From positions 90,774-154,773 of the forward strand of contig JACPHO010000001.1 in the NCBI GenBank assembly GCA_016188545.1: a DNA stretch of 64,000 nt, in the 5' to 3' direction. Source of the stretch: Candidatus Shapirobacteria bacterium (GTDB lineage: Bacteria; Patescibacteriota; Microgenomatia; UBA12405). Shown here piece by piece: positions 1,228-56,416 of this stretch; position 1 is the first letter of the stretch, and every line of letters starts with the position of its first letter. A model generated the notes under the pieces. That model was not told the origin of the DNA, did not search any database, and worked only from the letters and a program-made list of their open reading frames with translations. Made by a program: the position numbers and the translations under genes.

Positions 1228-1532
1228 TAACAGATTTAGACAAATAGATTTTTATCACCAATAAATTATAATTATTCAATCAAATAAAGTGCCAGAATCT
1301 AAACAAGTTGAAGGGTTTTCAACATCTGAACCAAACTCAACACTGGTTGATTACGCTTATTTGGTAGCAGAATATGAACAACAAGCCAGCTCAACTGGAG
1401 GAAGAGTATCTAAATCAACTGGAGATATCTGTACTATGCAATATTTTAATAAAAGCGGTGGGTTGGTTACGACGATATCTTTCAACAAATCAACCAGAAC
1501 CTTGTCACTTATCCCAAATCTCGAAGAATAGT

Positions 1533-3866
1533 CTATAGTTTTGCTCTCTTCCCAATATCACTCTCGACAATTTCTTTTGGTCGGCCGTATTTTAGTGATG
1601 ACAACTTCTTGATCATTGTCGCCAGCTCCTTGTTTCCTGGTTTTTTGATTTCATCAGCAGTCACGTTTAGTGAAAAAGGTGGCTGAGGGATACCGTTAAC
1701 CATCGTCTTCAAATAAGTATGTCCGATAGGTAAGTTAAGTAAATCGTGTTCGTTAAACTCCGGTTTAAATTGGTTCACCAAAAATGAGGCATCCGAAATA
1801 CCTACTCGAAATGAACAAATCGACCCTACATTTCCAAATACGGCGTTTTTAATCTCGTCATCCATCTGGCTGATAAACTGATTTCCTACCGTCAAATTCA
1901 GATGGTATTTTCTAGCTTCGCTCATAATCACCGCAAAATCCTGGGTGGCAAAATTCTGAAACTCGTCCACATATAGGTAAAAGTCTTTTCGTAGAGGTTC
2001 TGGGGTATCCTGACGGCTCATCGCCGCGATCAATATTTTTGGAATCAACACCAATCCCAAGAATGCTGAATTTTCCTCACCAATGCTACCCTTGGCCAGG
2101 TTAATTATCAAAATCTTTCCCTCATCCATGGCAGTTCTGAAGTTGAACGAACTGGTAGATTGCCCAATGATGTTTCTCATCATGGTATTGGTAATAAACC
2201 GACCAAATTTCGAGACGATGTAATCCAGTACCTCAGATTTATGGAATTCATTGGTATTAGCAATTTGGTCAGTCCAATAGCGCTTCACCATCGGGTCAGC
2301 CACTTTGGGCAACAGTTGTTGGACAAACGATGGGTCAGTCAAACATCGTACGATTTCGATAAAAGTTGCCCCCGGTTCAGCCATCACTGTCAACATTATG
2401 TTTCGGATTGCATGTTCAAATCGAGGTCCCACAATACCTGTTTTATAAGGATCGTACAATTTGTACATCAAGTTAATGATGGATGAGGTCACAAAATCCT
2501 TTTGATCTTCACGTTCACATTCCATGACGTTAAAGCCCATCGGTCGGTCTACCATTCCCGGATCAAAATAAATTACATCCTCAATCCTCTCCGGTGGTAT
2601 CCGTTCTAGTATCATTTCGTAGGTATCGTGAGGATCAATAAAACACACTCCCTTACCAGCCTTGATATCCTGCAGCGCCATATTAGCCAGTAGCCACGAT
2701 TTACCCACACCAGTTTGTCCCACCACATAAAAATGACGCTGCCGGTCTTTGGTGGTTACATGAAATTTTTTCTTAATACCTCGGTAGTGGTTTTCACCTA
2801 TATATATCCCCTCATCAGGACTATCAGTTGGAGCCGGTGCTCCCTTTGCTTTGAGCCAGTAAATATTAGGAGTTTCAATCGTCTTGTTAGGAAAATGAAA
2901 AATCGAAGCAATCTCATCAGAGGACAGAATAGTTTTCCCCTTGTGCCAATAAATGATTGGATATTTGTATATAAAGTCGTCCAAGAAAAATTTTTTGATC
3001 CAGATTTTTCGGCTAGAAAGCTTATTCCAAGGCGACTCGTATTGGCCAAATGTAGCCTTAATATTCGATAAATTCATCTTAGCAGTTTCTTCGTTTGGAG
3101 CAAACGAAACTATTCGGATCGCTGTTTCAAATCCAACTTTACTCGACTTCACATCAATCGCTTCCAGCTGTCGGGCATCGACTTTGTAACTAGCTTTTTC
3201 CGGGTTTGCCTCTGATTTTTTGGTACTTGATACAAACCCCTTTCCTGCTTTTGCCCAGCCTCCATCGGTTGGTGACAGCACCAGCTGTATAGCCATCGTT
3301 TCATTCGCCTCTAGTTTCGACATGGCTGAAGTGATAGTCGATAGGGGATCAGTCGGGATATCTTTGTAGGTTTTAAGTGGAAAGTATGGTGTCTTTTTTA
3401 TTCCCATCCAGGCATACTCTGCCTTACCTTCTTCGGGGTAAATATTTGGCTCTTCTACTTCCTGAACGTCGGCTCCGGCATAGACACTGTAAATCTGTTT
3501 TTCCATAAAGTCTTGAGTCTTTCGTGGAATACAAATATAAAATTTTATATCTTCATGCGTACCGATCATTTCCAAGGACACACTCGGTTGAGCCTGAAAT
3601 CTCTGTAAAAACTTAAACCTAGCGCTTTTATACAAACTAGAAAGCGATCCTAGTATGTGTTCCATAGCATCTATCTTAATTTCATTTTCTTCAGGAACAG
3701 CTACTAAAAGTGTTACCATCTCAAGTGACTTTTCTTCCCTATCTTTCCACTTATACCATAGTACAAATACCGCTAACAAAGCCCATAACAATACTAATAC
3801 CATAACAGTGATCATCAGCATCATCATTGCGTTTGTAGCAAACGCCATCAAAACATCAGGGGTCAT
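1533..3866 (-). CDS. VirB4/TrbE/TraC-like conjugation-type ATPase (FtsK/HerA superfamily), N-terminal TM anchor
   Basis: 777 aa. N-terminal hydrophobic helix. Walker A HFYVVGQTGVGKSW in mid-protein. Walker B-like FYLYVDEFQNF about 260 aa further on. This layout fits VirB4 rather than VirD4. Confidence 0.55.
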   Translation of the reverse strand: MTPDVLMAFATNAMMMLMITVMVLVLLWALLAVFVLWYKWKDREEKSLEMVTLLVAVPEENEIKIDAMEHILGSLSSLYKSARFKFLQRFQAQPSVSLEMIGTHEDIKFYICIPRKTQDFMEKQIYSVYAGADVQEVEEPNIYPEEGKAEYAWMGIKKTPYFPLKTYKDIPTDPLSTITSAMSKLEANETMAIQLVLSPTDGGWAKAGKGFVSSTKKSEANPEKASYKVDARQLEAIDVKSSKVGFETAIRIVSFAPNEETAKMNLSNIKATFGQYESPWNKLSSRKIWIKKFFLDDFIYKYPIIYWHKGKTILSSDEIASIFHFPNKTIETPNIYWLKAKGAPAPTDSPDEGIYIGENHYRGIKKKFHVTTKDRQRHFYVVGQTGVGKSWLLANMALQDIKAGKGVCFIDPHDTYEMILERIPPERIEDVIYFDPGMVDRPMGFNVMECEREDQKDFVTSSIINLMYKLYDPYKTGIVGPRFEHAIRNIMLTVMAEPGATFIEIVRCLTDPSFVQQLLPKVADPMVKRYWTDQIANTNEFHKSEVLDYIVSKFGRFITNTMMRNIIGQSTSSFNFRTAMDEGKILIINLAKGSIGEENSAFLGLVLIPKILIAAMSRQDTPEPLRKDFYLYVDEFQNFATQDFAVIMSEARKYHLNLTVGNQFISQMDDEIKNAVFGNVGSICSFRVGISDASFLVNQFKPEFNEHDLLNLPIGHTYLKTMVNGIPQPPFSLNVTADEIKKPGNKELATMIKKLSSLKYGRPKEIVESDIGKRAKL

Positions 3867-4270
3867 TCTTGTTTAAATTTTACATTACCTTTCCTCTTTT
3901 TTATTAGTTTGAGTAAAAATCCGGATAGCCATCTACCCGCTTCGTTGACTGTTTTCTTAAACCCCTCTACAAACCTAGCCCGGGTAACTGGTAGAACCAC
4001 TTTTGGATTTTGGTTTGGAGTCGGTACTAGTACTGGCTGTCCACTGTCATCATGAACAGTCTTCATTTGCCCTGGGTCTTCCTCGATCTTTTGCATCCAG
4101 CTTTTTACTTCGTGAGGAACTCGTGGAGTTGTCTCTCTAACATCAGTCATTACCTCGACCTTATGTCGCCGCTCAGTACCTGTTATTACCTCAGGTTTTT
4201 GTTCTGTTCTAGTTTCTAGAATCTCGTTTCTAGTTTCTGTCCCAAGGTTTTCTTTAGCTTCTGCCATCAA
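3863..4270 (-). CDS. hypothetical charged protein, 4-nt overlap with and upstream of the VirB4-like gene
   Basis: 135-aa ORF. Translationally coupled (ATGA-type overlap) to the ATPase gene. No recognisable motif. Confidence 0.35.
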   Translation of the reverse strand: MMAEAKENLGTETRNEILETRTEQKPEVITGTERRHKVEVMTDVRETTPRVPHEVKSWMQKIEEDPGQMKTVHDDSGQPVLVPTPNQNPKVVLPVTRARFVEGFKKTVNEAGRWLSGFLLKLIKKRKGNVKFKQE

Positions 4271-4332
4271 TTTTAAGTATAAACTAATCTTTTTCTAAAA
4301 GTTTACCCTGAGCGAGTAAAACGAGTCGAATG

Positions 4333-4412
4333 GGTCATTGCGAGGAACAGTTACCACAGTGACCTGCCTACCGGCAGGCAGGCGTGGCAATCTCGTTGGA
4401 ATCACTCCAGCC
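4333..4412 (+). repeat. GC-rich hairpin repeat element, copy A (TCATTGCGAGG ... CCTGCC-TACC-GGCAGG ... GGCAATCTCGTTGGAATCACTCCAGCC)
   Basis: Seen directly. Shares a 5' box, a perfect 6-bp hairpin and a 3' 27-nt box with copies at 14652 and 42657. It is GC-rich within AT-rich intergenic DNA. Confidence 0.6.
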
Positions 4413-4443
4413 TTGTTTTTCCTTCCTATTCTCGTTTCTACCC

Positions 4444-4881
4444 TTACTTTATCTTTTCTGCCAAACCATCGTATACGTCAGCCAACCAAGCCACTGATGA
4501 TGAAAACTTTAAACTTTCACCAGTAATTTTATCTGGAATTTTTTTCATTAAAATATCCATCCCTCGGTCAGAATCCAAAAGGACTGCTCCAAGCAGCACT
4601 GAACCCGTACCTGTTGCTAACTCTCCAGGAATAAGTTTGGTTACAATACTATCTACTTCCGGGTTAGTCAAAATTGATACCAATGCGCCTGCATCAATTA
4701 ATACGCCACCTACTATCAAACAATCCCCGACGGTAATCTCATGTTCTCCTACAGCCCTCAATCGCTCTGCATTTTTCTGTAAAAATTCTCTTACCCCAGT
4801 TTTTAATGATTCTTTTGCGCTACTACTAATAATATCTTTCATTCGAAATTCTAGCACGAATAATTGCCATTTCACTCTCAA
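4444..4881 (-). CDS. hypothetical protein
   Basis: 145-aa ORF with coding-like composition. Gly-rich segment PGELATGTGSVLLGAV. No confident family assignment. Confidence 0.4.
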   Translation of the reverse strand: MRVKWQLFVLEFRMKDIISSSAKESLKTGVREFLQKNAERLRAVGEHEITVGDCLIVGGVLIDAGALVSILTNPEVDSIVTKLIPGELATGTGSVLLGAVLLDSDRGMDILMKKIPDKITGESLKFSSSVAWLADVYDGLAEKIK

Positions 4882-4920
4882 CTATTCACTGTCATACATA
4901 GTTTATATTTTTTATAGAAT

Positions 4921-5039
4921 TCCTAATTCCTAATTCCTAATTCCTAATTCCTAATTCCTAATTCCTAATTCCTAATTCCTAATTCCTAATTCCTAATTCC
5001 TAATTCCTAATTCCTAATTCCTAATTATTAATTATTAAT
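4921..5039. repeat. heptanucleotide microsatellite (CCTAATT)15 followed by (ATTAATT)2
   Basis: Counted directly: 15 perfect CCTAATT units at 4921-5025, then 2 ATTAATT units to 5039. It lies in the divergent intergenic region between the starts of 4444..4881 (-) and 5061..6245 (+). It ends 21 nt before the ATG at 5061. Confidence 0.95.
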
Positions 5040-5060
5040 TCACGTTATACTACCTTAACT

Positions 5061-6245
5061 ATGTCCTCAGACACCAGCTTTGACCAAATTCGTAAAATCG
5101 ACAACAGCCGTCGTTCTGCTCCGTTTGCCGCCATTCTAATGATTGGCCTTACTCTCCTGATTTTTTATTGGTTCTTTCGTGGTGGCAGTTTTCGACTCTA
5201 TGCTAGTGTCTTTTTTGGTTTGTACTTTATTACCCGTCAAATCTGGGTCTCGGTTCTTCTCATTGGTATTATCCAAAACATTGTCTTTTTGCCACTCCAC
5301 TTTATGTGGCTCAAAATGTCCACCTCGATCAAGTCATTCGAAGACGAGATAGATGCCATCAAAGCCCCCGATGAGCAATACATTGTCTTTCAACAAAAGG
5401 TAAAAAAAGGGGACTTTGCCGCCTCATTTTACATCTTTAGTTTTATTCTCAACGCCATTGCTTTCTTCTCCGCCGGTAGAGTATTCCTTATCGACTTTTA
5501 CACCAAAAATCTCGATCCCGAACTGATTTATTCTTTTATTCCCTATCCGGAATACCCACTTCAGGGCACCATCTTTAATTTCCCCTTTTTCAAGGTCACC
5601 GACACTACCACTGTTGATTGGGAGTATATTATTTTCTTCTGGCTCGGAGTCACTATATTTTTTGCAGTTATTCGTCTCTTGTGGAGATTCCTCAAAATAT
5701 TTTTAGCCAAAAACGAGTCTATTCTCAAATACCGCATTGGTTACAACAAAATCCTTTTTGGCATTGGGGGAGTCGGGCTTACTCTCATTGTTCTTTCTGC
5801 TTACTTTTTACGACATATACCCACCAATGCCGTCTTCATTTGGCTCAGTGTCAATCTAACTCGACAAAACAGTACTATGAATTTAATCACTGCTATCGGT
5901 ACTTTTCTAACCACCATTGCCGCCGGATACAAGAATAGTAATATCAGTGCCAAGAATCTCCTCGCTGCCGGAGTCGCCAAAGAAATTGTCGAACAAATAA
6001 CCCGGGACAAGATGCGTCAAAGCTTCAAAAACGCCTTACTTTTGGGAATTGGCGCTTACACCATTACCTCACAGATCCCCAGCGCCTTCGAGCTTTCCGT
6101 GGCCACCTTCGAGGTTCTTTACATCATCTCTCCTTATACCTTTGACCGTTTTCTCACCCAAGTCGCCAACAAATCCACCCCCACCCCAGCCCCCGGTGAA
6201 TCTACCCCCCTCGCATCTCCTCCCGTCGATGCTCCCAAATCCTAG
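5061..6245 (+). CDS. polytopic membrane protein, hypothetical; Pro/Thr-rich C-terminus
   Basis: 394 aa with about 8 hydrophobic helices. C-terminal tail KSTPTPAPGESTPLASPPVDAPKS. Confidence 0.55.
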   Translation: MSSDTSFDQIRKIDNSRRSAPFAAILMIGLTLLIFYWFFRGGSFRLYASVFFGLYFITRQIWVSVLLIGIIQNIVFLPLHFMWLKMSTSIKSFEDEIDAIKAPDEQYIVFQQKVKKGDFAASFYIFSFILNAIAFFSAGRVFLIDFYTKNLDPELIYSFIPYPEYPLQGTIFNFPFFKVTDTTTVDWEYIIFFWLGVTIFFAVIRLLWRFLKIFLAKNESILKYRIGYNKILFGIGGVGLTLIVLSAYFLRHIPTNAVFIWLSVNLTRQNSTMNLITAIGTFLTTIAAGYKNSNISAKNLLAAGVAKEIVEQITRDKMRQSFKNALLLGIGAYTITSQIPSAFELSVATFEVLYIISPYTFDRFLTQVANKSTPTPAPGESTPLASPPVDAPKS

Positions 6246-7303
6246 ACATCGCGGTTAACCATATAAAGAGCTACACCCTGTATAAAATCAATCGCCTCAC
6301 TATTCAAATTCAGTGATCTCAGCTTTTCGGCAATATCAGCTGCCTTTTGGGCATAGCTTCGGCTAATATTTCCCGAATATTGTAACGATCTGCTATCAAT
6401 TATGGCTTGTTTCGCCCCATCAATATCAGTCTGCTTTGCAGACCTCTTGCCCCAAACTTTTTTCAAAGCTTCAATTTGTTTGGGTGTTCCATCTTTCAAA
6501 GTCCGTAGAATCAGTAAAGTTACTTTTCCCTGAAGTAAGTCGGAGTTGGCGGATTTACCAGTTTTTTCCGGGTCGCCAAATACTCCTAAGATATCATCCT
6601 GCAGTTGAAATGCTACCCCTCCATCCATCGAATAGTCAGTCAATATCTTCAGTGTGTCTTCACCAAGTCCGGCTAGCATTGCTCCAATATGTAATGGGTT
6701 TTCGTAAGTATAAATTGCTGTTTTTGCCCTGTGGACAGTAATCACATCGTCCTCAGTACACTTTTCTAATATCTTTTCCAAAGTAACATCATAAGCTTGA
6801 CCCCAGGCAGTATTGGTTATTCCTCTTAACATTTTTAAGGTAGCTCTTCGTACTAATTTGTCCTCAAATTCTGCACTAAGTAATAGTTCTTGTCCGATTT
6901 CCAATACTGCGTCGCCCACATCAACCGCCATCGAATCTCCATAGTGTCTGTCTCCATCTTCAAAGTATTTATGTGTGGTTGGTTTGCCACGTCGGACATC
7001 GTCCTGATCCATCATATCGTCGTGCATCAGTAGGGCAGTATGTACCAACTCGACTCCAATTGCCGCTTTCCATATCCGGTCGTCTACCGGTTTCCCTAGT
7101 AAGTATCCATAGTAAGTAAACGCTCCCCTCAGTCTCTTTGAAGACCTCAAGCTGTGTTCACTCGCATGCTCTACCATTTTCCTGACCAGATCCATTTGTT
7201 TTTGGTTGTATCCGAATCCTAGGGCAAGTTCACTCTCCCAGTATTCTTTTAATTTTGCATCAATAATTGGCACAAATTGTTGAAGTGTTTCTTTTGCGTT
7301 CAT
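6242..7303 (-). CDS. polyprenyl (geranylgeranyl/farnesyl) diphosphate synthase
   Basis: First Asp-rich motif LLMHDDMMDQDDVRRGKPT and second Asp-rich motif FQLQDDILGVFGD of trans-isoprenyl diphosphate synthases. Confidence 0.9.
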   Translation of the reverse strand: MNAKETLQQFVPIIDAKLKEYWESELALGFGYNQKQMDLVRKMVEHASEHSLRSSKRLRGAFTYYGYLLGKPVDDRIWKAAIGVELVHTALLMHDDMMDQDDVRRGKPTTHKYFEDGDRHYGDSMAVDVGDAVLEIGQELLLSAEFEDKLVRRATLKMLRGITNTAWGQAYDVTLEKILEKCTEDDVITVHRAKTAIYTYENPLHIGAMLAGLGEDTLKILTDYSMDGGVAFQLQDDILGVFGDPEKTGKSANSDLLQGKVTLLILRTLKDGTPKQIEALKKVWGKRSAKQTDIDGAKQAIIDSRSLQYSGNISRSYAQKAADIAEKLRSLNLNSEAIDFIQGVALYMVNRDV

Positions 7304-7414
7304 ATTCCCTATTAGTCGCTATTATTTTAAATATCCTCCGTATTCTATCTTATTTCGCTCTAACGTACTAAAGTTCCAAAGTTCTAACCATCTAATTTTC
7401 TGCTAATCTTAATC

Positions 7415-8590
7415 ATGCCCGTCACACAACCACGGTTTACCATCACCTTTGGCGGTTGGTACCAGCGCACCACTCTTCATCTCTCCGAGATTTACGACCT
7501 CTTCGCCCTTGGCCATTCCGGACTAAAATTAGATCAGGCCACTCTTACCACTCTTCACCAAAAACTCGACTTTGTCACAGTCACTCGTGAATGGGGAGAA
7601 CTCGAATATATCAAGTGCCTAACTTCCGACGGCATCGAAGTTCGCTATTACGAAGATGGACTTTATGTCCTGATTATCAATAGTACCCACATCGTCACCG
7701 GCCAAAAAAAGCTAAGAGAATATTATGACAACAGTCTAGCTCCGGCAATTTCATATATTTTTTCGCTCGGTGCCCCCACTCCCAAAGTCCTTGCCAATAT
7801 CCGCCAAGAGCACCCTACCGTCGTCTCTGCCTACACTACCACCCCCAAAACTTTTTTTGCCAAGTTAAAATTCGGCCCGGTCTATAGCCAAATCACTTCA
7901 CCCTCTCTTTCAGTCTACAAAACCCCCGCCCACATTATCATTCTCAGCAAAAGCAGTCCGGAGGATGTCAACAAACTAATCGAAATGCAAATATTTTTCC
8001 GTGAATTCAAAGACCAGCTCCACCGCTATCTCAATCTCCATCGGGAAATCTGGGAAGAAATCTCCGACATCAAGGAGCGCGGTTCAGTTTCCGGTAGAGA
8101 AGTCGAGTCCCTGCGGGCTCGTCTCGACTCCTATCAGAAGACTATCAATCTCATCAAAAGTCGTCTCAATCAAATGGGCACCTATGTTCGCACCCGAGCC
8201 TCAATTGCCAAAAAATTAGAATTAGAAGACCAGCTGGCTTCTGTCTTCCAATACAAATTCGAAACTCTCACCAATACCCATTCCTATGTTCAGGACATCT
8301 GGAAAATGACTCAGGATTATGTCGATACCGCCATTCAGGTGATTAACGAAGTCAAAGCTCATAGCACCAGTAACGGTATCAATTCCTTGCGATTAATTAC
8401 CACGATCGGAGTTCTCTCCGGAATTTTCGGCTATCTGAGTAAAGACCAGTTCCCCACCTTTACTCTCATTGGTCTTTGGTACTTTTTAGTTCTGGTTTTG
8501 GGTACATGGATAATCAATCAGGCTGTCACTACCGCTTTCAGGTCAATCCATTATCGTCTTAAATTTGCCAACAATCAGGGGATAAAATAA
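7415..8590 (+). CDS. CorA-like topology protein (large soluble N-domain, coiled coil, two C-terminal TM helices); lacks GMN
   Basis: C-terminus LRLITTIGVLSGIFGYLSKDQFP...LIGLWYFLVLVLG resembles the CorA/ZntB pore helices. The G-M-N signature is replaced by YLS. Confidence 0.35.
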   Translation: MPVTQPRFTITFGGWYQRTTLHLSEIYDLFALGHSGLKLDQATLTTLHQKLDFVTVTREWGELEYIKCLTSDGIEVRYYEDGLYVLIINSTHIVTGQKKLREYYDNSLAPAISYIFSLGAPTPKVLANIRQEHPTVVSAYTTTPKTFFAKLKFGPVYSQITSPSLSVYKTPAHIIILSKSSPEDVNKLIEMQIFFREFKDQLHRYLNLHREIWEEISDIKERGSVSGREVESLRARLDSYQKTINLIKSRLNQMGTYVRTRASIAKKLELEDQLASVFQYKFETLTNTHSYVQDIWKMTQDYVDTAIQVINEVKAHSTSNGINSLRLITTIGVLSGIFGYLSKDQFPTFTLIGLWYFLVLVLGTWIINQAVTTAFRSIHYRLKFANNQGIK

Positions 8591-8604
8591 TATTCTCATT
8601 TCAT

Positions 8605-8639
8605 TGAAAATTGAAAATTGTAAATTATAAATTGAAAAA
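8605..8639. repeat. five imperfect heptads (TGAAAAT-like) plus an adjacent 6-bp inverted repeat TGGCAG...CTGCCA
   Basis: Seen directly, immediately upstream of the transporter gene. A second AATT-containing 7-mer repeat placed in a promoter region. Confidence 0.45.
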
Positions 8640-8667
8640 TGGCAGTTTTCTCTCTGCCATTTTTCTC

Positions 8668-9732
8668 ATGTTCATGGGCACTGTTGGCTCAGGCATTTTT
8701 GTCCTGCCTTATCTCTTTTATCATTCCAACTTTATTTTTGCGGTTTTCTTTTTACTTATCCTCGGACTGGTGACCGGGGTTCTCAACCACTTTTATGCCC
8801 ACATTGTCACCTCTACTTCCGGCGACCACCAACTTGCCGGTTATGCCCGCATTTACCTTGGTCATCGATTTGCATCTTTGGCTACTCTCAACTTACTCTT
8901 ACTTTCTTTCGGAGCCATTGCCGTTTATCTCAAACTTTTTGTTAGTTTTATCTCCTTGCTCTTCCCCACATTTTCTCCGTTTTTACTTTTGACTTTTTAC
9001 TTTTTACTTTTATCTCTACTCTACTTTCTCTACTTTCACCCCTCGCCAACTTTCGACTTTATCATCCCCGTCTTTATGCTCCTCATTCCCATTTTTTTAT
9101 TTGTTTATTCATTTAGATTTTCACTATTAACTATTAACTATTCACTATTAACTAGTCCATCCTTCAAGTTCTTCGGTGCTACCATCTATGCTCTTTCTGG
9201 TTTCACTATTATTCCCGAAGTACAGGAAATTCTCTTAAAGGACAAAAAACACCGTCACTCATTACCACTGGTCGTTACTCTGGGAATGATTATGGTTATC
9301 TTTTGCTATCTCATGTTTATATATGGGGTCATCGCCATCAGCAATGGGGGAGTAAGTATCGATGCAGTCACTGGTCTCTCCCGTTCGACCCCTCTATTGG
9401 CTAAAATTATTTCCGGTTTTGGAGCGGTCATTGTTATGCGGGCTTCTTTCGGATTTCTCATTGTTCTGCGGGAACTGTTTTTCCGTGACCTGTCACTTCC
9501 CAAAAATCTTTCCAACATTCTCCCCTTATCATTCCCCATTCTGGCGCTGACTCTGGGATCGATATCACTTATTTCCCTCATCTCTCTGACAGGCAATATT
9601 ACTATTTTCGTTTCTGCTTTGCTAATTTGTCTCATCCGCCTCCGGCTCCCCACCACTTTTTGGACTCAATTTTGGGTACTGTTAGTACTCATCAGCCTAT
9701 TTCTTGGTTTAGTCATCAACTTTATTTTCTAG
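8668..9732 (+). CDS. polytopic membrane transporter, possibly amino-acid permease-like
   Basis: The six-frame ORF starts at a TTG at 8611. The first ATG (MFMGTVGSGIFVLPYLF...) is at about 8668. It has about 10 TM helices. GSGIFVLP resembles the amino-acid permease N-terminal motif. Confidence 0.45.
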   Translation: MFMGTVGSGIFVLPYLFYHSNFIFAVFFLLILGLVTGVLNHFYAHIVTSTSGDHQLAGYARIYLGHRFASLATLNLLLLSFGAIAVYLKLFVSFISLLFPTFSPFLLLTFYFLLLSLLYFLYFHPSPTFDFIIPVFMLLIPIFLFVYSFRFSLLTINYSLLTSPSFKFFGATIYALSGFTIIPEVQEILLKDKKHRHSLPLVVTLGMIMVIFCYLMFIYGVIAISNGGVSIDAVTGLSRSTPLLAKIISGFGAVIVMRASFGFLIVLRELFFRDLSLPKNLSNILPLSFPILALTLGSISLISLISLTGNITIFVSALLICLIRLRLPTTFWTQFWVLLVLISLFLGLVINFIF

Positions 9733-11425: not shown

Positions 11426-13219
11426 ATGGAGTCGCAGGTTCAGGAAATTAAACAAAAGCTGGATATTGTCGAAATTATTGGCAAGTTTCTCCCGCTCAAA
11501 AAGCGTGGTCGCCACTATCTAACCAACTGCCCGTTTCATGGCGAAAAAACCCCCTCATTCACCATCTCCCCAGAGTTACAAATTTTCAAATGTTTTGGCT
11601 GTGGCAAAGCCGGGGACGTTTTTACTTTTATCCAAGAATATGAACATGTCGATTTCAAAGATGCTCTCGAAGACCTCGCCAAAGTGGCTGGGATAGTTCT
11701 CAAAAAAGATCCCCATCTGACCCAAGTCGAAAAACTTCATCGTCGTCTCATCGATCTCAATCAAGAAGCGGCCAAATTCTATCACTACATCCTTACCGCT
11801 CATCCGCTAGGTAAACCGGCTCTCGACTATTTACTAAATCGTCATATCACTCTCGACACTATCAAAACATTTCGGCTGGGTTATTCGCCCTCAAATCCCG
11901 AATTGGTTTCAAACTATCTTCAAAAAAAAGGTTTTACAAAGGCGGAGATGTTGGCGAGTGGTACCTATGGCACCTCCCGTTATGGCAATAGTATGTATGA
12001 TCGGTTTCTTGGTCGGGTCATCTTCCCCCAGTCAGATTTTCGTGACCGCATATTAGGGTTTTCAGGACGGATATTACCATCCGATAAATCCCAAAATCAA
12101 GCCAAATACATCAATTCGCCCGAGACCGATATATACCACAAAAGTCAGATGCTTTACGGAATCAATCTTGCTCGAGAAGAAATTAAACGCCAAAAATCAA
12201 CCATTATTGTCGAAGGTGAGTTCGATATGATTTCACCTTATCAAGAGGGGATTAAAAATATTGTCGCCATCAAAGGAACTGCTTTCACTACCGAACAACT
12301 TCAACTTCTTCACCGTTACACTGATACACTCATCCTCGCCCTAGATGAGGATTTGGCGGGTACAAATGCTTCTCTTAAAAGTATCGAAGTCGCCGACACC
12401 ATGGGATTCGATATCCATGTCATCGATCTCCAAAATAAGTTCAAAGATCCTGACGAAGCCATAATGGCTGACCCCCAATTTTTTAAAACCCAGTTGGCCA
12501 CTCCGGTTCCCATCTGGGATTTTATTATCAATTCAGCTCTAAAATCTCACGATTCGTCTACTCCCAAGGGCAAACAAGACATCCTTCGCCAAGTCCTCCC
12601 TTTCCTTGCCAAAATTTCCAATTTAGTCACCCGTTCCGATTATCTAAGTAAACTAGCAAGTCAGCTTGGCTCCTCACCCGAGGCAGTTATTGCCGAGTCT
12701 CAGAAATACAAAAATAATTCATCCAAATTAATTGAAGATCAAAGTTTGAAGATTGAAGATCTACCCGCAAAAATTCCCAAAATGGATATCCTAGAAGAAC
12801 ATCTTCTTAGTCTAATTTTTTCTGCCAAAAAACCCTATCTTCTGGCAACTAAAATCACCGAACATTTTGCATTTATTACCCAACGTTACCAAAAAGTCTT
12901 TAGTTATCTTCTAAAACCCCGTAAAAATTTTGTGGCCGCCAAGTTTGCCTCCCGTTTACCACCAGAACTATCATCGGTCTTTCAGGATATTTTTCTTCAC
13001 TCTACCCAGTTTGAATTTGACTCCCACTCTCGGCTATCAGAGATCAACAAAACTATCAATCAGATCAAATCGATTACCTATAAAGACCAGTTAACCACCC
13101 TGAGCACAAAAATTGCTCAAGCTGAAAATCAGGGAGAAGAAGAAATTGTCAAAAAACTGGAACAGGATTATAATCATATACTCTCAGAATTGTCTCAGGT
13201 CCAATCTACAAAAAGGTAG
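11426..13219 (+). CDS. dnaG: DNA primase
   Basis: CHC2 zinc finger [11 protein letters not shown]...[15 protein letters not shown] segment [11 protein letters not shown] and LALDEDLAG. Confidence 0.95.
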
Positions 13220-14651: not shown

Positions 14652-14830
14652 CGTCATTGCGCCTGCCCGCCTCTGGAGGGAGGAGCATTTACCATAGTGA
14701 CCTGCCTACCGGCAGGCAGGCGTGACAACCTCGTTGGAACCTCCACAGCCTCTCGCCACAGTAGCCTCTCGCCACAGTCTTATTTACGTTTTTACTTTTG
14801 TCTTTTGAATTTTGAATTTTTTTTACACAT
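14652..14830 (+). repeat. GC-rich hairpin repeat element copy B plus AT-rich tail module
   Basis: TCATTGCG at 14654. Hairpin CCTGCC-TACC-GGCAGG at 14701-14716. 3' box GACAACCTCGTTGGAACCTCCACAGCC at 14724-14750. Tandem 11-mer TCTCGCCACAG x2. Then TCTTATTTACGTTTTTACTTTTG...TTTTGAATTTTGAATTTT. Confidence 0.6.
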
Positions 14831-14848: not shown

Positions 14849-16093
14849 GTGTCCAAAAAGTTATTTTTCATAGGTTTTTTCCTCATCTCTATTCTCTATC
14901 TTTTTCTCCGTCTTTGGCAGCTTCCTCAAAAACTCGACTTCCGTCTCGATCAGGCTTTCTTTCTCACCGAGAGTAAGTCGACGATCGAGTCATCCACTCC
15001 GCGACTCCTTGGCCCTCCCACATCTAAAATTTTCGAAGGTCGTAGTTTTTATGTCGGATCTAATTACTATTATCTTTTAGGAGTCATCGGTCACCTCAAC
15101 AGTTGGGATCCTTTAGCTATCACCATCTTTTTTATTATTTTCGAATTCATTTTTTATCTCCTTTTTATATATTTTTTGAGACAAAAATTCGGCATAACTT
15201 CCTCCCTTTTAGTCTTTTGGTTTATTGCGGTATCACCTTATTTAGTCGCCCACAGTCGCTTCTTTTGGAATCCTCATATGTTGATACCATTATCAATTAT
15301 TGCGCTATATAGCCTGGAAAAATATATCGCCACTCATAAATATATTTTCCTGATCCTCGCTTCTTTTGCCTGGGGACTGGCTTTCTCCTGTCACTACAGC
15401 CCTATTTTTTGGCTGCCGATTTTTATCTATTTTTTAATCAAGTCGAAACTATTCATAAACCCGCCCGTCCGGCAGGCGGGTCTTAAATCATACCTCATAA
15501 TTCTTCTAGGCATTTTTATTGGCGATCTGCCTTTTTTCATTTTCGAACTCCGCCATCAGTTTTATAACCTCCGGACATTTTTCTTTGTCTACTCCCATTC
15601 CATCGAAAGCGGGGGACTCACCTCCCACTATTTCATCTTCCCCCTTTTAGTTTTTACTTTTTATTTTTTATTTTTGTTTTTTTCTCACCGTCTTGTTCTA
15701 ATTTCTAGTTTCCTGTTTCTCGTTACTACCTATCAATTCTATCTCTACCCCCACTACCCCTCGCTCGGAGCCGTCGCCGGTTGGGATTATCCCACCCAGG
15801 TCAGAGTCGCTGATTATATAAGTAAAAACTGCCCCTCAAACTTTAACGTTGCCGCCACCATACAAGGGGATACTCGTTTTTATGATTTGCGTTTTTTACT
15901 AGAGAAAAATAATTGTCATCCCGATAGTGTCGATGCTTATCCCACTTCCAAAACATTATTTCTAGTTTCACCCCATGATCGATCTCCTGAAGCCGAGACA
16001 GTTTGGGAAGTCGACTCGCTTCGTCCCTTTACTATCACTTCAAAAACCAAGTTAAACGATTTTCTTGATCTCTATTTCCTCACCCGCCTTTAG
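14849..16093 (+). CDS. polytopic membrane protein, possibly GT-C-fold (ArnT/PMT-like) glycosyltransferase
   Basis: 414 aa with more than 10 TM helices. First predicted loop after TM1 carries an acidic motif (RLDQAFFLTE). Family assignment is weak. Confidence 0.4.
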   Translation: MSKKLFFIGFFLISILYLFLRLWQLPQKLDFRLDQAFFLTESKSTIESSTPRLLGPPTSKIFEGRSFYVGSNYYYLLGVIGHLNSWDPLAITIFFIIFEFIFYLLFIYFLRQKFGITSSLLVFWFIAVSPYLVAHSRFFWNPHMLIPLSIIALYSLEKYIATHKYIFLILASFAWGLAFSCHYSPIFWLPIFIYFLIKSKLFINPPVRQAGLKSYLIILLGIFIGDLPFFIFELRHQFYNLRTFFFVYSHSIESGGLTSHYFIFPLLVFTFYFLFLFFSHRLVLISSFLFLVTTYQFYLYPHYPSLGAVAGWDYPTQVRVADYISKNCPSNFNVAATIQGDTRFYDLRFLLEKNNCHPDSVDAYPTSKTLFLVSPHDRSPEAETVWEVDSLRPFTITSKTKLNDFLDLYFLTRL

Positions 16094-18390: not shown

Positions 18391-18682
18391 TCCCCCTTAG
18401 CTCAGTGGTAGAGCGCTCGCCTGTGAATGAAAATCGCAGCTTTCTCAAGTAATTGAGACTGAAACTCCGGAAGAATTCAGGGAAGCCTAAGATACCTTAC
18501 GGTATTATGGTAATCCTGAGCCGATCCCCAACGCAAAGTTGGGGCAGGTGCAGAGACTAGGTGGTACACCGTTTAGCCTCCGGCTCCTGACTATTGTCAG
18601 GATGAAAAGATAGTCCAGGCCTCAATGAAAGTTGAGGATTCCTGTAAGCGATTGGTCCGAAGTTCGAATCTTCGAGGGGGAG
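18391..18682 (+). tRNA. tRNA-Asn(GUU) split by a group I intron between nt 35 and 36
   Basis: Exons 18391-18424 and 18645-18682 fold into a cloverleaf: acceptor UCCCCCU/AGGGGGA, D-arm GCUC-AGUGGUA-GAGC, anticodon stem CUCGC/GCGAU, loop CUGUUAA, T-arm CGAAG-UUCGAAU-CUUCG. It has U1-A72 and discriminator G73. No CCA is encoded. Confidence 0.7.
18425..18644 (+). ncRNA. group I self-splicing intron (small tRNA-type, no ORF)
   Basis: Recognised pairings: P1 exon CUGU with intron GCAG; P2 TCTCAA/TTGAGA; P6 CCCCAA/TTGGGG; P7 GACTA/TAGTC within conserved CAGAGACTA and AAGATAGTCC elements; P8 CCTGAC/GTCAGG; P9 CCTCAA/TTGAGG. Terminal G at 18644. Confidence 0.75.
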
Positions 18683-18759
18683 CAAGTATAAAAAATACCT
18701 AAAAATACGTAATATATGTGTATGTTATCTCCAACATGGGAGACAAAGTATAATACATC

Positions 18760-42600: not shown

Positions 42601-42656
42601 AACAAATTGCCAATAACTTATTATTTGCAATTTGTAATTTGAATTTTTACTCCCCA

Positions 42657-42766
42657 CGTCATTGCGAGGGGTTTATCCCCGCGGCAATCTCGTTGGAACC
42701 TCCACAGCCTTTCGTCCCAGTCTTATTTACGTTTTTACTTTTTACTTTTGATTTTTTACTTTTACG
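42657..42766 (+). repeat. GC-rich hairpin repeat element copy C plus AT-rich tail
   Basis: TCATTGCGAGG at 42659. Alternative hairpin GGGG-TTTAT-CCCC. 3' box GGCAATCTCGTTGGAACCTCCACAGCC at 42683-42709. TCTTATTTACGTTTTTACTTTTTACTTTTGATTTTTTACTTTTACG. Confidence 0.6.
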
Positions 42767-42787
42767 TATTTCGTTTTTTAATCGGTA

Positions 42788-44644
42788 TTACTTTCTCACC
42801 AATCTTTTCAAAAAATCCAAGTGCCACCGGCATATATCAACCAGTAGTGTCTCATCATCAAATTCCAAGTATTTCATTAATGTAACAAAAGAAGGCTCAC
42901 AGTCTTTTAACTTAATTTTTGCCCCCAAACTCTGATGGTAGGAAATATTTAGTTGCCATATTTGCAGTGAAAATTGCAGTTCCATCGATGGAGGCAAACT
43001 TCCTCGAGAAATCATCGAGACATACGGAAGCAAATACGGCGCTCTACACAATTCTCCGTTTGGTAAAGACACTACCAGACCCGACCCCCTAGTCCCCACC
43101 ATAAAGTCTCTCAAGTCATTTATGTCCACCAAGTCATCAGCCTCTAGTTTTAACTTTTCATGATACTTTTCCAAATACTTTTGCAAAAGTCCATTTTTCT
43201 CAATTATCTCTATCGTTGGTGGAGCCAGTTTCAGCAGTGTATTGACTGTAAATCCGGTAGCAATGTCATCATCCAGCAGTACATATTTCCCCGCCTCAAT
43301 TTTTGAAAACTGTTCCTCGATCGATGGGTTTCCTGGACGGTTAACCAAATGTTCCCACCGGCATTGTCCATCACTAATCCCAAAATGTCTCGAAAATCCC
43401 AGATTGTATTTACCTTCAGTGCAGGCATCCAGGTTAATTACCTCGTTCTCCTGGTTATATTTTTCAACAATTTCCTTTTGGGCACCTAGGTCAATCGGCT
43501 GCACTTTTACTTTCGATCTCTGATCAGGCAAACTGCAAGTCGAAAAACTGTTTTCCAGAAACTTGCTAAATTTATCCAAAAATTCAATATTGGCAATAGT
43601 CAGTTCGTATCTCGAGTTAATATTTTCCCAAATTTGGGTCGACCATTGATAGTCAACTCGAATAGCATACTTTTTTTCCTGTAGATCAAAGCTATGAACC
43701 GGGTGGTTGTACCATTTATCAAACAGCGGTTCAATTGCCGGCAAAGGTGGCTTTTGTTGGCTTCTAATTTCCGAGGACGAAATGCTTGGTTGGTCAAAAA
43801 AAGCATCGACAATTACAATCTCATTATTTGAGGTAATGTATGGGTCATGTTTAATTTTCAACATTCGATCCTCATGCGAAGGTCTTTTTACACAGACACA
43901 GCCCCCCTTGTTAATAAAGGTTCTGGCAAAAGCAGCGTTATCTCCCCCAAACACATAATAAATTTTCAAAGGAATTTCTGGCAAATGAAATTTCAAATAA
44001 TTCTCCAATCGACGCAAGACATCGGTAAAGTTAATTAGGTACTCGTTGTATCGGACTTCCCAATTGTCCACCATCAGCCAATCGCTATATGCCACCGCCT
44101 TTTCGCACAAATACAGACGGTGAGGTGCATCAAAAAAAGTTGTATCTTTGTATTTTTTAAAAACATAAGTATCGTGTGATGGCGAGATATACCCACCAAC
44201 TACAATTTTTCCCCTAGACTCCAGTTCTTTCTTGGCATTTTCCATCATCATCAAGTGCCCCTCGTGTATCGGACAAAACGCCCCAGTCGTCAGCAGTATT
44301 ATCGGTGGGTTAGTCGAAAAGTTAGCTCGAGTCTCCTCGGGCAAGTCTTTTATCTGGTTAATAATTTTGTGTACCGGTGTGGTCATCATTCTCGGGTCAC
44401 TTCGCAAATCAAGCAAGTCTTCCGGTTCAGACCCATCATCAAAAAATCCCGCCTCCTCAATTATCTTCGGGTCATGATATTTTCGCACCGCTCGTCCATA
44501 AAACGGATCACGCAGCATTTTCCAATACAATCTTAACTTGTCCTTGTCATATCTTTCACCTGAACGCAACTCAATATAGGCCTTGTCGAGAGACTCTATC
44601 GTAGCATCAGGTTTTAGTCCAAATATCTTCCACAGGTTAATCAT
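42788..44644 (-). CDS. NMN/NaMN adenylyltransferase-like (HxGH) domain fused to a type I phosphoribosyltransferase-like domain
   Basis: LLTTGAFCPIHEGHLMMM (cytidylyltransferase HIGH motif) near residue 120. C-terminal KYVLLDDDIATGFTVNTLL resembles the PRPP-binding motif of type I PRTases. 618 aa. Adjacent to nadE. Confidence 0.6.
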   Translation of the reverse strand: MINLWKIFGLKPDATIESLDKAYIELRSGERYDKDKLRLYWKMLRDPFYGRAVRKYHDPKIIEEAGFFDDGSEPEDLLDLRSDPRMMTTPVHKIINQIKDLPEETRANFSTNPPIILLTTGAFCPIHEGHLMMMENAKKELESRGKIVVGGYISPSHDTYVFKKYKDTTFFDAPHRLYLCEKAVAYSDWLMVDNWEVRYNEYLINFTDVLRRLENYLKFHLPEIPLKIYYVFGGDNAAFARTFINKGGCVCVKRPSHEDRMLKIKHDPYITSNNEIVIVDAFFDQPSISSSEIRSQQKPPLPAIEPLFDKWYNHPVHSFDLQEKKYAIRVDYQWSTQIWENINSRYELTIANIEFLDKFSKFLENSFSTCSLPDQRSKVKVQPIDLGAQKEIVEKYNQENEVINLDACTEGKYNLGFSRHFGISDGQCRWEHLVNRPGNPSIEEQFSKIEAGKYVLLDDDIATGFTVNTLLKLAPPTIEIIEKNGLLQKYLEKYHEKLKLEADDLVDINDLRDFMVGTRGSGLVVSLPNGELCRAPYLLPYVSMISRGSLPPSMELQFSLQIWQLNISYHQSLGAKIKLKDCEPSFVTLMKYLEFDDETLLVDICRWHLDFLKRLVRK

Positions 44645-55365: not shown

Positions 55366-55480
55366 TAGATACCTCTAGTATATATACAACTTATTGTAGT
55401 TGTTTCTTTCAACCAAACAATTCCAAATTTGGTTTCAGAAAAGTATTCCCAGTATTAGTGTCTTATGCTACTATTTTTAT

Positions 55481-56416
55481 ATGAACAAAAACTCCTACCT
55501 TTTTACTTACCTAGTTATTGCCTCACTTTTAACTCCAGCATCAGCTTCTGCCTACTACATTTCTATGGATATTGGCACAGCTGGGGTGGTTACCTATTCA
55601 TATCCCTCAGTATTGGGAGACGAAGATAAACCAGAAGAAAAAAAAGAAGAGAAGAAAGAAGAAAAACGTGAAGAAAAACGAGAGGAAAAGAAAGAAGAAA
55701 AAAGAGAAGACAAACCATCTCGGGTAGAACCGCGTCCTGAAAAAATCGAAATTAGAAAAGTAGAGAATAAAACGAACGTAAAACTAATCAAACAAGATAA
55801 AGTTAGGCAAGAATTATCTCCTGAAAAAGTGAGTCTAAAATTTTCCGCGGTTCCAAAAGTAACTCCAACCTCATCATTAAAGAAAGATGACCTGGCTGAA
55901 AACGAAATAGAGAATGAAGTAGAAAACGAAAATGAAGATTTAAGTGATGGGCAAAAAGAGCTTCGAAAAACTATCAAAGACCGATCAGGTAGAAAGGATG
56001 AAAAAGTCGAGATCCAAAGTGAAGTTCATGATGACGGAACTGTCGAATTGCAGTTGGAATCACGCGATGTGAAAGCGAAAATTAAAAATGGTGAGATTGA
56101 AGTAGATGTCAAAAACAATAATATAGGCTCATCAGACAATTCCGGTATTGAAAAAAAGCTAATCCATTTACCAGATCAGGCATTACAAAGATTTATAGAT
56201 AAAGGCATGTCTACTGTACCTGATACCTTGGAAGTAGGGGAGTCGGGAGTTGGTTATGAATATTCAATTACCGCCACCAAAAAAGAAAAACTTTTTGGAC
56301 TTATCCCAAGAGTAGCCAAGTACAAACTAACTCTAGATGATCAAAACGGGGTGGTTTCCGAACAAAAAGTAAATTCCAGCGTTGTCGAGAGGTTGCTGAA
56401 CATTTTCTCATTCTAA
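55481..56416 (+). CDS. secreted protein with (K/E)-rich EEKKEEK tandem repeats
   Basis: Signal peptide MNKNSYLFTYLVIASLLTPASASA. PEEKKEEKKEEKREEKREEKKEEKRED low-complexity tract. Start placed at ATG 55481. Confidence 0.55.
   Translation: MNKNSYLFTYLVIASLLTPASASAYYISMDIGTAGVVTYSYPSVLGDEDKPEEKKEEKKEEKREEKREEKKEEKREDKPSRVEPRPEKIEIRKVENKTNVKLIKQDKVRQELSPEKVSLKFSAVPKVTPTSSLKKDDLAENEIENEVENENEDLSDGQKELRKTIKDRSGRKDEKVEIQSEVHDDGTVELQLESRDVKAKIKNGEIEVDVKNNNIGSSDNSGIEKKLIHLPDQALQRFIDKGMSTVPDTLEVGESGVGYEYSITATKKEKLFGLIPRVAKYKLTLDDQNGVVSEQKVNSSVVERLLNIFSF

Follow-up and report, generated by a model that had tools for sequence, protein, structure and literature searches.

A long heptanucleotide array upstream of a conserved membrane-protein gene in a Candidatus Shapirobacteria genome

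Introduction

How does a tandem array of fifteen identical heptanucleotides come to lie beside the promoter of a conserved gene, and does the number of its units matter for transcription? The array considered here is found in a metagenome-assembled genome of Candidatus Shapirobacteria, between a small orphan gene and a divergently oriented gene for a polytopic membrane protein. CPR/Patescibacteria have tiny genomes and few classical regulators, and to our knowledge no member of this lineage can be grown alone. If slippage tuned core genes in CPR, these bacteria would have an inexpensive means of regulation or bet-hedging, of a kind as yet undescribed for the group.

The array belongs to a known class, that of long heptanucleotide simple-sequence repeats near gene starts. 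In many prokaryotes, heptanucleotides are the most abundant class of long simple-sequence repeats, for which polymerase slippage has been proposed; heptamer arrays occur near gene starts, and the intergenic regions of relatives are often shorter and free of repeats (PMC4679880). A preliminary description of the present locus saw in it the classic architecture of a phase-variable promoter. Is the array such a switch, a regulatory element of another kind, or chiefly a product of replication slippage?

Structure of the array and its left-hand neighbour

In the window (the whole 64-kb stretch of DNA that was analysed, about 11% of the genome), CCTAATT is arrayed at a single locus. A regular-expression count gives a perfect microsatellite of fifteen 7-nt units, (CCTAATT)15, at 4922-5026, followed at the promoter-proximal end by two variant units, (ATTAATT)2, at 5027-5040; TRF reports the tract as 4918-5041, with period 7, 17.7 copies, 97% matches and a score of 220. 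The long perfect heptanucleotide repeat noted earlier in this divergent intergenic region is therefore real, although the coordinates first given for it (4921-5039) were one base too low. From 4900 to 5060 the locus reads TATAGAATT-(CCTAATT)15-(ATTAATT)2-CACGT-TATACT-ACCTTAACT-ATG. The unique sequence bordering the array is TATAGAATT on the left and CACGTTATACT on the right, and the left flank TAGAATT (4915-4921) is common to the (CCTAATT)n arrays of two related loci, L007 and L011. Base shuffles of the window contain no perfect period-7 runs, and the array is thus far beyond chance.

Could the array be coding, or act through a folded structure? A coding repeat is ruled out, since stop codons are present in all six reading frames. 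The DNA structure of the array does not rise above shuffled controls (z = -0.10), nor do the RNA folds of the array and its flanks on the two strands (z = -0.32 and -1.20), in which the array is unpaired or forms weak self-pairing; these values rule out a DNA cruciform or an RNA hairpin of the hmw type. No known RNA family, tRNA or attachment site was found at the array locus. Elsewhere in the window, a tRNA gene at 18393-18686 is split by a group I intron (RF00028, 69.8 bits, 18415-18637). Its acceptor, D and T arms are readable, and brute-force trials of splice sites make His, Thr and Tyr anticodons all possible, depending on the sites chosen; ARAGORN reports no tRNA anywhere in the window.

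The gene to the left of the array is transcribed from the minus strand (4444-4842). A TTG start at 4881 had been proposed for it, but ATG 4842 is the most likely start: the NCBI protein has 132 aa, and an extended -10 box found by promoter scan, TGcTAGAAT (4848-4856, minus strand), lies 5 nt upstream. Since the start moves to 4842, the intergenic gap measures 218 bp, of which the array fills 55%, rather than 180 bp filled for the most part, as first described. The promoter of this gene, GTGAAA-16-TGcTAGAAT at 4875-4848, lies about 45-60 bp from the left end of the array; both this divergent promoter (4848-4875) and the AT-rich left flank are distal to the array. The 132-aa protein is found in this organism only, its database matches being itself alone (NCBI HYV64_00625 and a Logan copy), and it has no Pfam or NCBIfam family.

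The promoter of the membrane-protein gene

Where does the array lie with respect to the promoter on its right? In the window, a TAnnnT box stands 5-10 nt before the start codon in 28 of the 38 long ORFs, as against 11% of all ATG triplets. The boxes often take the form TGnTAnnnT, and a Shine-Dalgarno motif is almost absent among the same 38 ORFs. Because the -10-to-start pattern is present in 28 of 38 genes and there is hardly any Shine-Dalgarno motif, the organism evidently uses leaderless or near-leaderless mRNAs.

At the membrane-protein gene, TATACT (5046-5051, plus strand) lies 9 nt before ATG 5061, with no TG extension and no -35 match. All the orthologous loci examined have TATACT or TATAAT 6-11 nt upstream of the ATG, usually with a TGn extension. 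This conservation and the leaderless pattern across the genome identify TATACT as the -10 box. The -10-like box that had been pointed out next to the array is thus genuine; the proximity also stands, although the end of the array is 5 nt from TATACT and 20 nt from the ATG, rather than about 7 and 21 nt. A promoter scan of the plus strand found no full sigma-70 match upstream of the membrane gene and no good -35 hexamer at the right spacing in the array, and no conserved operator was identified upstream of the gene.

The array extends from about -13 to -131. Its two ATTAATT units take up the spacer and the -35 position, and it continues for some 100 bp further upstream. It lies neither between a -35 and a -10 element nor in a reading frame, and it is upstream of the inferred transcription start.

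The downstream gene

What does the gene next to the array encode? Its product (5061-6245, plus strand) is a 394-aa polytopic membrane protein of a conserved Microgenomates family; at least five hydrophobic segments and the structure model bear out the earlier identification of a polytopic membrane protein. The protein has at least 360 homologues with 51-85% identity and 78 invariant columns, and the family is conserved, syntenic and single across Microgenomates. There is no direct match to it in Pfam, NCBIfam or PDB sequences, and a direct family assignment was dropped for this reason; the link to YidC described below is one of fold and transitive evidence only.

By Foldseek against the PDB, the three best matches of the AlphaFold model (pLDDT 73.7) are Bacillus halodurans YidC, and they are weak (E = 0.18, probability 0.97, TM 0.44). 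An exhaustive profile search with the family reached only 63 representative clusters, and its remotest matches are 245-314-aa proteins with near full-length matches to Pfam 60KD_IMP, below threshold. In hhalign, the family aligns with one of these proteins, P0176, at 98% probability, and P0176 in turn matches 60KD_IMP over positions 3-156 of 163 (E = 7.5e-5, below the gathering score). Fold and profile comparisons thus suggest that the protein is probably a divergent YidC/Oxa1-like insertase. Whatever its family, it is the product of a conserved core gene, which is probably housekeeping and essential.

A search of the genome collection with the 394-aa protein led to Candidatus Shapirobacteria MAGs. 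Many of their loci keep the same gene order, namely a XerC-like recombinase, a 777-aa HerA/DUF87 protein, a 113-135-aa protein, the membrane protein and a polyprenyl synthase, with dnaG and rpoD further along.

The same locus in relatives

Is the array an old feature of this gene, or has it arisen in one lineage? Relatives have shorter, repeat-free intergenic regions at the array site. The array is absent from six orthologous loci with 74-85% protein identity (L002, L004, L005, L006, L008 and L009), in which a gene for a 266-aa HAD hydrolase lies directly upstream of the membrane gene; the gap between the two is 33 bp, repeat-free, and reads CTGTTGnTATACTAC.TTAACTATG, with TGnTATACT. In more distant loci, a gene of about 125 aa lies 40-60 nt away, with the -10 boxes back to back. 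The TG extension that is present in most relatives has been lost in the window and in L007.

The most informative relative is L007 (83% protein identity), which has homologous flanks on both sides of the array site. Between these flanks it reads TAGAATC-CCTAACT-ATTAATT-CTTAATT-ATTAATT-CACGATATACT, with ATTAATT units like the two variant units of the window, and CTTAATT. The unit number thus differs between lineages, with 17 units in the window and four degenerate units in L007. The L007 units are a proto-state, or a decayed state, of the window array, and since they lie between the same flanks, the array expanded in place.

The region around the array has also changed. When L004 is compared with the window by blastn, homology stops at 4153 and restarts exactly at 5046. 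Together with the gene maps, this defines 4154-5045 as a lineage-specific replaced segment, of which the array is the right edge. The segment holds the orphan gene, a copy of a REP/MITE-like intergenic element (GTCATTGCGAGG..CGTGGCAATCTCGTTGGAA..CAGCCT, 4335-4440, plus strand) and the array; a tblastn search with the HAD protein finds no remnant of the HAD gene in the window. The possibility that the segment is a mobile element with terminal repeats was considered and set aside: its ends share only a 12-14 nt inverted match, which could be due to chance, and the orphan gene is without homologues.

Two observations on this part of the window can be added. The gap between the gene of about 125 aa and the membrane gene is a hot spot of gene gain (window 4271-5060, L004 5124-6000, L016 9983-10000): it is empty, at about 20-60 nt, in distant relatives; in the 74-85% group it is occupied by the HAD hydrolase gene, and in the window by the orphan gene, the REP-like element and the array. 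The REP/MITE-like element has three copies in the window, at about 4335-4460, 14665-14830 and 42650-42790, with the layout GTCATTGCGAGG...CGTGGCAATCTCGTTGGAACCTCCACAGCCT...TTATTTACG and, after it, a tail of (TTTTTAC)n heptamers. The pattern TTTTTACTTTTTACTTTT, with at most two mismatches, occurs 14 times in the window, always on the plus strand, against 0.04 expected.

Support from independent assemblies

How firm is the unit count? Two Logan unitigs from SRR12113420 match the window at 100% identity, over 1444-4946 and 4997-9245, and each ends about 30 nt inside the array, one from either side. The array and both of its junctions are thereby independently confirmed, while the central 50 nt (4947-4996), and hence the exact unit number, are supported by the source assembly alone. 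Exact-protein look-ups and scans of genomes and metagenomes for strain-level copies returned only the same-sample unitigs ending in the array, and relatives with at most 85% identity. Such arrays interrupt short-read assemblies at promoter regions, which calls for caution; the array can also serve as a marker locus for strain typing.

A bias towards period 7

Is the array a solitary case in this genome? Perfect tandem runs in the window number nine at period 7 and one at period 14, itself a multiple of 7, with none at periods 2-6, 8-13 and 15; the shuffled window has essentially no perfect runs. Among the TRF rows for the window, 16 of 44 have period 7. The loci of relatives (58.7 kb) contain five period-7 runs and, except for one at period 14, none at other periods. 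No such arrays occur in about 97 kb from L002, L004, L006, L016, L018 and L019, of which the last three account for 63 kb. This rules out a heptamer bias as a trait of all Shapirobacteria; the bias is specific to certain lineages.

The units found are CCTAATT, ATTGAAA, TTTTTAC and TGAAGAT, and TTTTTAC-type units recur 14 times in the window. Since the period-7 arrays of the window sit in promoters, in coding regions and also in convergent 3' regions, where they form the tail of the REP-like element, there is no consistent association with promoters. Those in coding regions, at 4207-4238, 8980-9011, 9123-9154, 12731-12760 and 15645-15728, belong to two membrane-protein genes, to dnaG and, at its N-terminal end, to the 135-aa gene. 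The array at 9123 is (ACTATTA)x4.6; the corresponding stretch in relatives is nearly equal in length but unrelated in sequence. A repeat of another kind, purine-rich and of period 12/36 (GAAGAAAAAAAA x7.8), is found at 55622-55714 within ORF 55400-56416 and is presumably a Lys/Glu-rich low-complexity coding stretch.

A second, shorter 7-mer array had been reported before the next membrane transporter, and it too is real: TRF places it at 8603-8638 (ATTGAAA x5.1, 86% matches), between the gene at 7415-8590 and an amino-acid-transporter-like gene whose L018 orthologue carries Pfam Aa_trans. This array is absent in L002 and L004. Its unit number, (ATTGAAA)5, is the same in L012 despite about 31% DNA divergence of the adjacent gene, and it is therefore not hypervariable. 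In L012 (about 4150-4180) the (ATTGAAA)n array also carries 27 extra, GC-rich nucleotides, GCGCCCAAATGGAAGTCCCCTTGGGGG, which the window lacks.

Do arrays also precede other genes in relatives? L007 (1801-1832) and L011 (1773-1802) each have, at the contig end, an AGAATT(CCTAATT) array with no fewer than 3-4 units, which shares its unit and left flank with the window array. In both, exactly 17 nt separate the last unit from the -10 box of a 23S_rRNA_IVP gene (114 aa, PF05635), which lies downstream of the membrane gene; the two IVP proteins are 75% identical. In L007 the membrane gene is thus flanked by two related arrays, a decayed copy upstream and the CCTAATT array at the IVP gene. The recurrence of the unit with its flank at another locus hints at maintenance or mobility, and not pure neutrality. 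In L003, whose membrane protein is 55% identical to that of the window, positions 7047-7180 hold about three units of (TTAATTC), then NN, then about 17 units of (TGAAGAT), eight of them perfect, and the array reaches the TGTTGTATAAT -10 box of dnaG. The dnaG gene of the window has ATTGAAG x4.3, which is TGAAGAT rotated, within its coding region.

The unit is not confined to Shapirobacteria. In IMG/VR, (CCTAATT) arrays of at least four units were found in 21 stretches (L028-L048), with 4-7 units and 27-70% GC, which rules out CCTAATT as a unit specific to Shapirobacteria. Control heptamers of the same composition were found in 2 and 8 stretches, making CCTAATT about 2-10 times commoner. The viral arrays are mostly (AATTAGG)n just upstream of a start codon; each unit of (AATTAGG)4-7, in diverse viral contigs including those of 60-70% GC, gives the Shine-Dalgarno-like AGGA, and some of these contigs have two to three (AATTAGG)n arrays and many other heptamer arrays. 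The fifteen units of the window form by far the longest (CCTAATT) array seen.

A probable young product of slippage

What is the most economical account of these observations? On balance, we lean towards a young repeat that is essentially neutral or weakly modulating. A short, degenerate proto-repeat of the TAATT type would have grown in place by replication slippage, in an intergenic region remodelled in this lineage, where the orphan gene and the REP-like element would have replaced the HAD gene or a gap of 40-60 nt. The purity of the array, the proto-repeat of L007 and the heptamer-only repeat spectrum point to slippage as its origin, as far as sequence can indicate. Fifteen perfect units imply that slippage has been recent or is ongoing, and hypermutability of the array is plausible. 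The array would be one product of a heptamer-specific slippage bias in this genome and some of its relatives. In that case the locus offers a clean example of the in-place birth of a long heptanucleotide repeat, with L007 keeping the proto-state.

What would the repeat do to the membrane gene? It now takes up the -35 position, and the DNA upstream of it, in the leaderless-type, -10-only promoter of the YidC-like gene. Because the interior is periodic and the last two units are fixed variants, the gain or loss of a unit should leave the promoter-proximal 100 bp or so unchanged, and with it the DNA contacted by RNA polymerase. Each step would shift the AT-rich left flank and the divergent promoter of the orphan gene by 7 bp (240 degrees); the preliminary description had correctly calculated two-thirds of a helical turn. 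As with the nadA tract of Neisseria, a graded effect is possible if expression depends on how far away, and on which face of the helix, the left flank or the divergent promoter lies, and the array DNA could possibly act as a stand-in for an upstream promoter region. A counterpoint to neutrality is the lack of the TG extension in this lineage, so that the array DNA may matter for promoter strength. Another is the excess of (CCTAATT) arrays over control heptamers in viral contigs, usually just ahead of start codons. The effect on expression would most likely be none, or weak and graded, with no on/off switch.

Alternative explanations

Could the array be a true contingency locus? Here slippage would serve as a phase-variable switch or rheostat for the membrane gene or the orphan gene, with each change in unit number shifting an upstream element along the DNA and around the helix relative to the core promoter. 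The TAAA tract of Neisseria nadA works in this way, and the 7-bp repeats of Haemophilus hmwA grade expression in a comparable manner. The upstream 7-bp repeats of Haemophilus hmwA have 9-28 units (PMC2424069). The fifteen perfect units fall inside this range, and the earlier remark that a long 7-bp repeat is prone to slippage holds. The array adjoins a weak, -10-only promoter, its unit number differs by lineage (17 as against four degenerate units), and a tract upstream of a core promoter can work through the spacing of distal elements (PMC2791445). Assemblers break within the tract, but an assembler with k = 31 breaks at any repeat longer than k, and the unitig breaks are therefore no sign of heterogeneity.

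Several points argue against a switch of the classic kind. The array is not between the -35 and -10 elements, in a leader or in frame; it is upstream of the -10 box and would be untranscribed under the leaderless model, and interior changes in unit number spare the proximal 100 bp or so. The target is a conserved, probably essential core gene, YidC-like and not of the surface or accessory type, and the promoter of the orphan gene is about 45-60 bp past the left end of the array. The locus yielded no operator, no hairpin and no conserved element upstream, and in the literature searched no paper ties CPR bacteria to phase variation. The phase-variable promoter of the preliminary description thus finds little footing here; on/off switching by the array is unlikely, and a contingency locus of any form, rheostats included, seems to us improbable.

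A similarly doubtful explanation is that the array is a functional cis-element whose exact length is irrelevant. It might be an AT-rich UP-like element or -35 surrogate, an array for a heptamer-binding protein, or a mobile promoter module; the module would be (T/C)AGAATT(CCTAATT)n, bearing a promoter and accompanying newly inserted small genes. The exact 17-nt spacing between the CCTAATT arrays, with their flank, and the -10 boxes of the IVP genes in L007 and L011 speaks for this, as do the (TGAAGAT) array of about 17 units that runs up to the -10 box of dnaG in L003, the loss of the TG extension where the array is present (the window and L007) and the (AATTAGG)n arrays upstream of start codons in diverse phage contigs of 27-70% GC. 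CspB-type proteins bind heptamer repeats (PMC4679880). On the other side, other period-7 arrays of the window lie in coding and convergent 3' regions, within the array no hexamer at a suitable spacing makes a good -35 element, and the inserted segment is without terminal repeats save for the short match that could be due to chance. The same gene in relatives, putatively expressed, lacks any array.

A broader proposal can be made along these lines, although we regard it as rather a long shot. Some Shapirobacteria might use lineage-specific, hypermutable heptamer arrays at the -35 or upstream region of leaderless promoters as tunable or mobile promoter modules, with (CCTAATT)n before YidC-like and IVP genes and (TGAAGAT)n before dnaG as examples. 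If true, regulation by repeats, as a contingency or rheostat system, would be described here for the first time in CPR/Patescibacteria.

That the assembly has the number of units wrong, or has falsely joined the two sides of the array, is very improbable. The central 50 nt lie outside the independent unitigs and the pure 105-bp tract is close to the span limit of 150-nt reads, but both array ends are reproduced with their unique flanks at 100% identity, and synteny over the join is as in relatives (HerA-like gene, 125-135 aa gene and membrane gene in the same order). The array itself is thus well established, and an error could affect its exact unit count alone.

Comparison with known systems

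How does a young repeat grown by slippage, the reading towards which we lean, compare with arrays described in other organisms? The STRR repeats of heterocystous cyanobacteria are heptamers too, and can be counted among genome-wide intergenic heptamer arrays. Three other systems invite a closer comparison.

In position, the array resembles the TAAA tract of Neisseria meningitidis nadA. The unit there has 4 nt as against 7 nt here, and nadA encodes an accessory adhesin; defined NadR operators flank the tract, whereas no operator or regulator is identifiable here. The nadA repeat lies upstream of the core promoter, and its unit number alters distal spacing and phase, not the distance between -35 and -10 (PMC2791445).

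In unit length and copy number, the array is closer to the (ATCTTTC)n repeats of hmw1A/hmw2A in nontypeable Haemophilus influenzae, with a 7-bp unit and 9-28 copies as against 15+2. In each system the gene downstream encodes an envelope-associated protein, and mutation is expected to proceed by slippage (PMC2424069; PMC12721329). The hmw repeats are transcribed in the 5' UTR, where they form a long hairpin with a G-rich region that is processed by RNase III; they grade expression, and the effect needs the 5'-UTR hairpin and RNase III (PMC12721329). In contrast, the gene next to the window array is of the leaderless type, with its -10 box between the array and the start codon; no hairpin is predicted, and the gene is a conserved YidC-like one in place of an adhesin.

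A further likeness is to the genome-wide intergenic TAACTGA arrays of Beggiatoaceae, Cyanobacteria and Bacteroidetes. Unlike those arrays, the ones described here have several units (CCTAATT, ATTGAAA, TTTTTAC and TGAAGAT), with no one dominant, and they occur in a small-genome CPR bacterium with leaderless genes, where binding in a 5' UTR beside a ribosome-binding site is unlikely. In both cases, period 7 is dominant and arrays lie near gene starts, the spacers of relatives are shorter and repeat-free, and contigs tend to end in the arrays (PMC4679880). For the TAACTGA arrays, slippage or a binding protein has been proposed as the explanation (PMC4679880).
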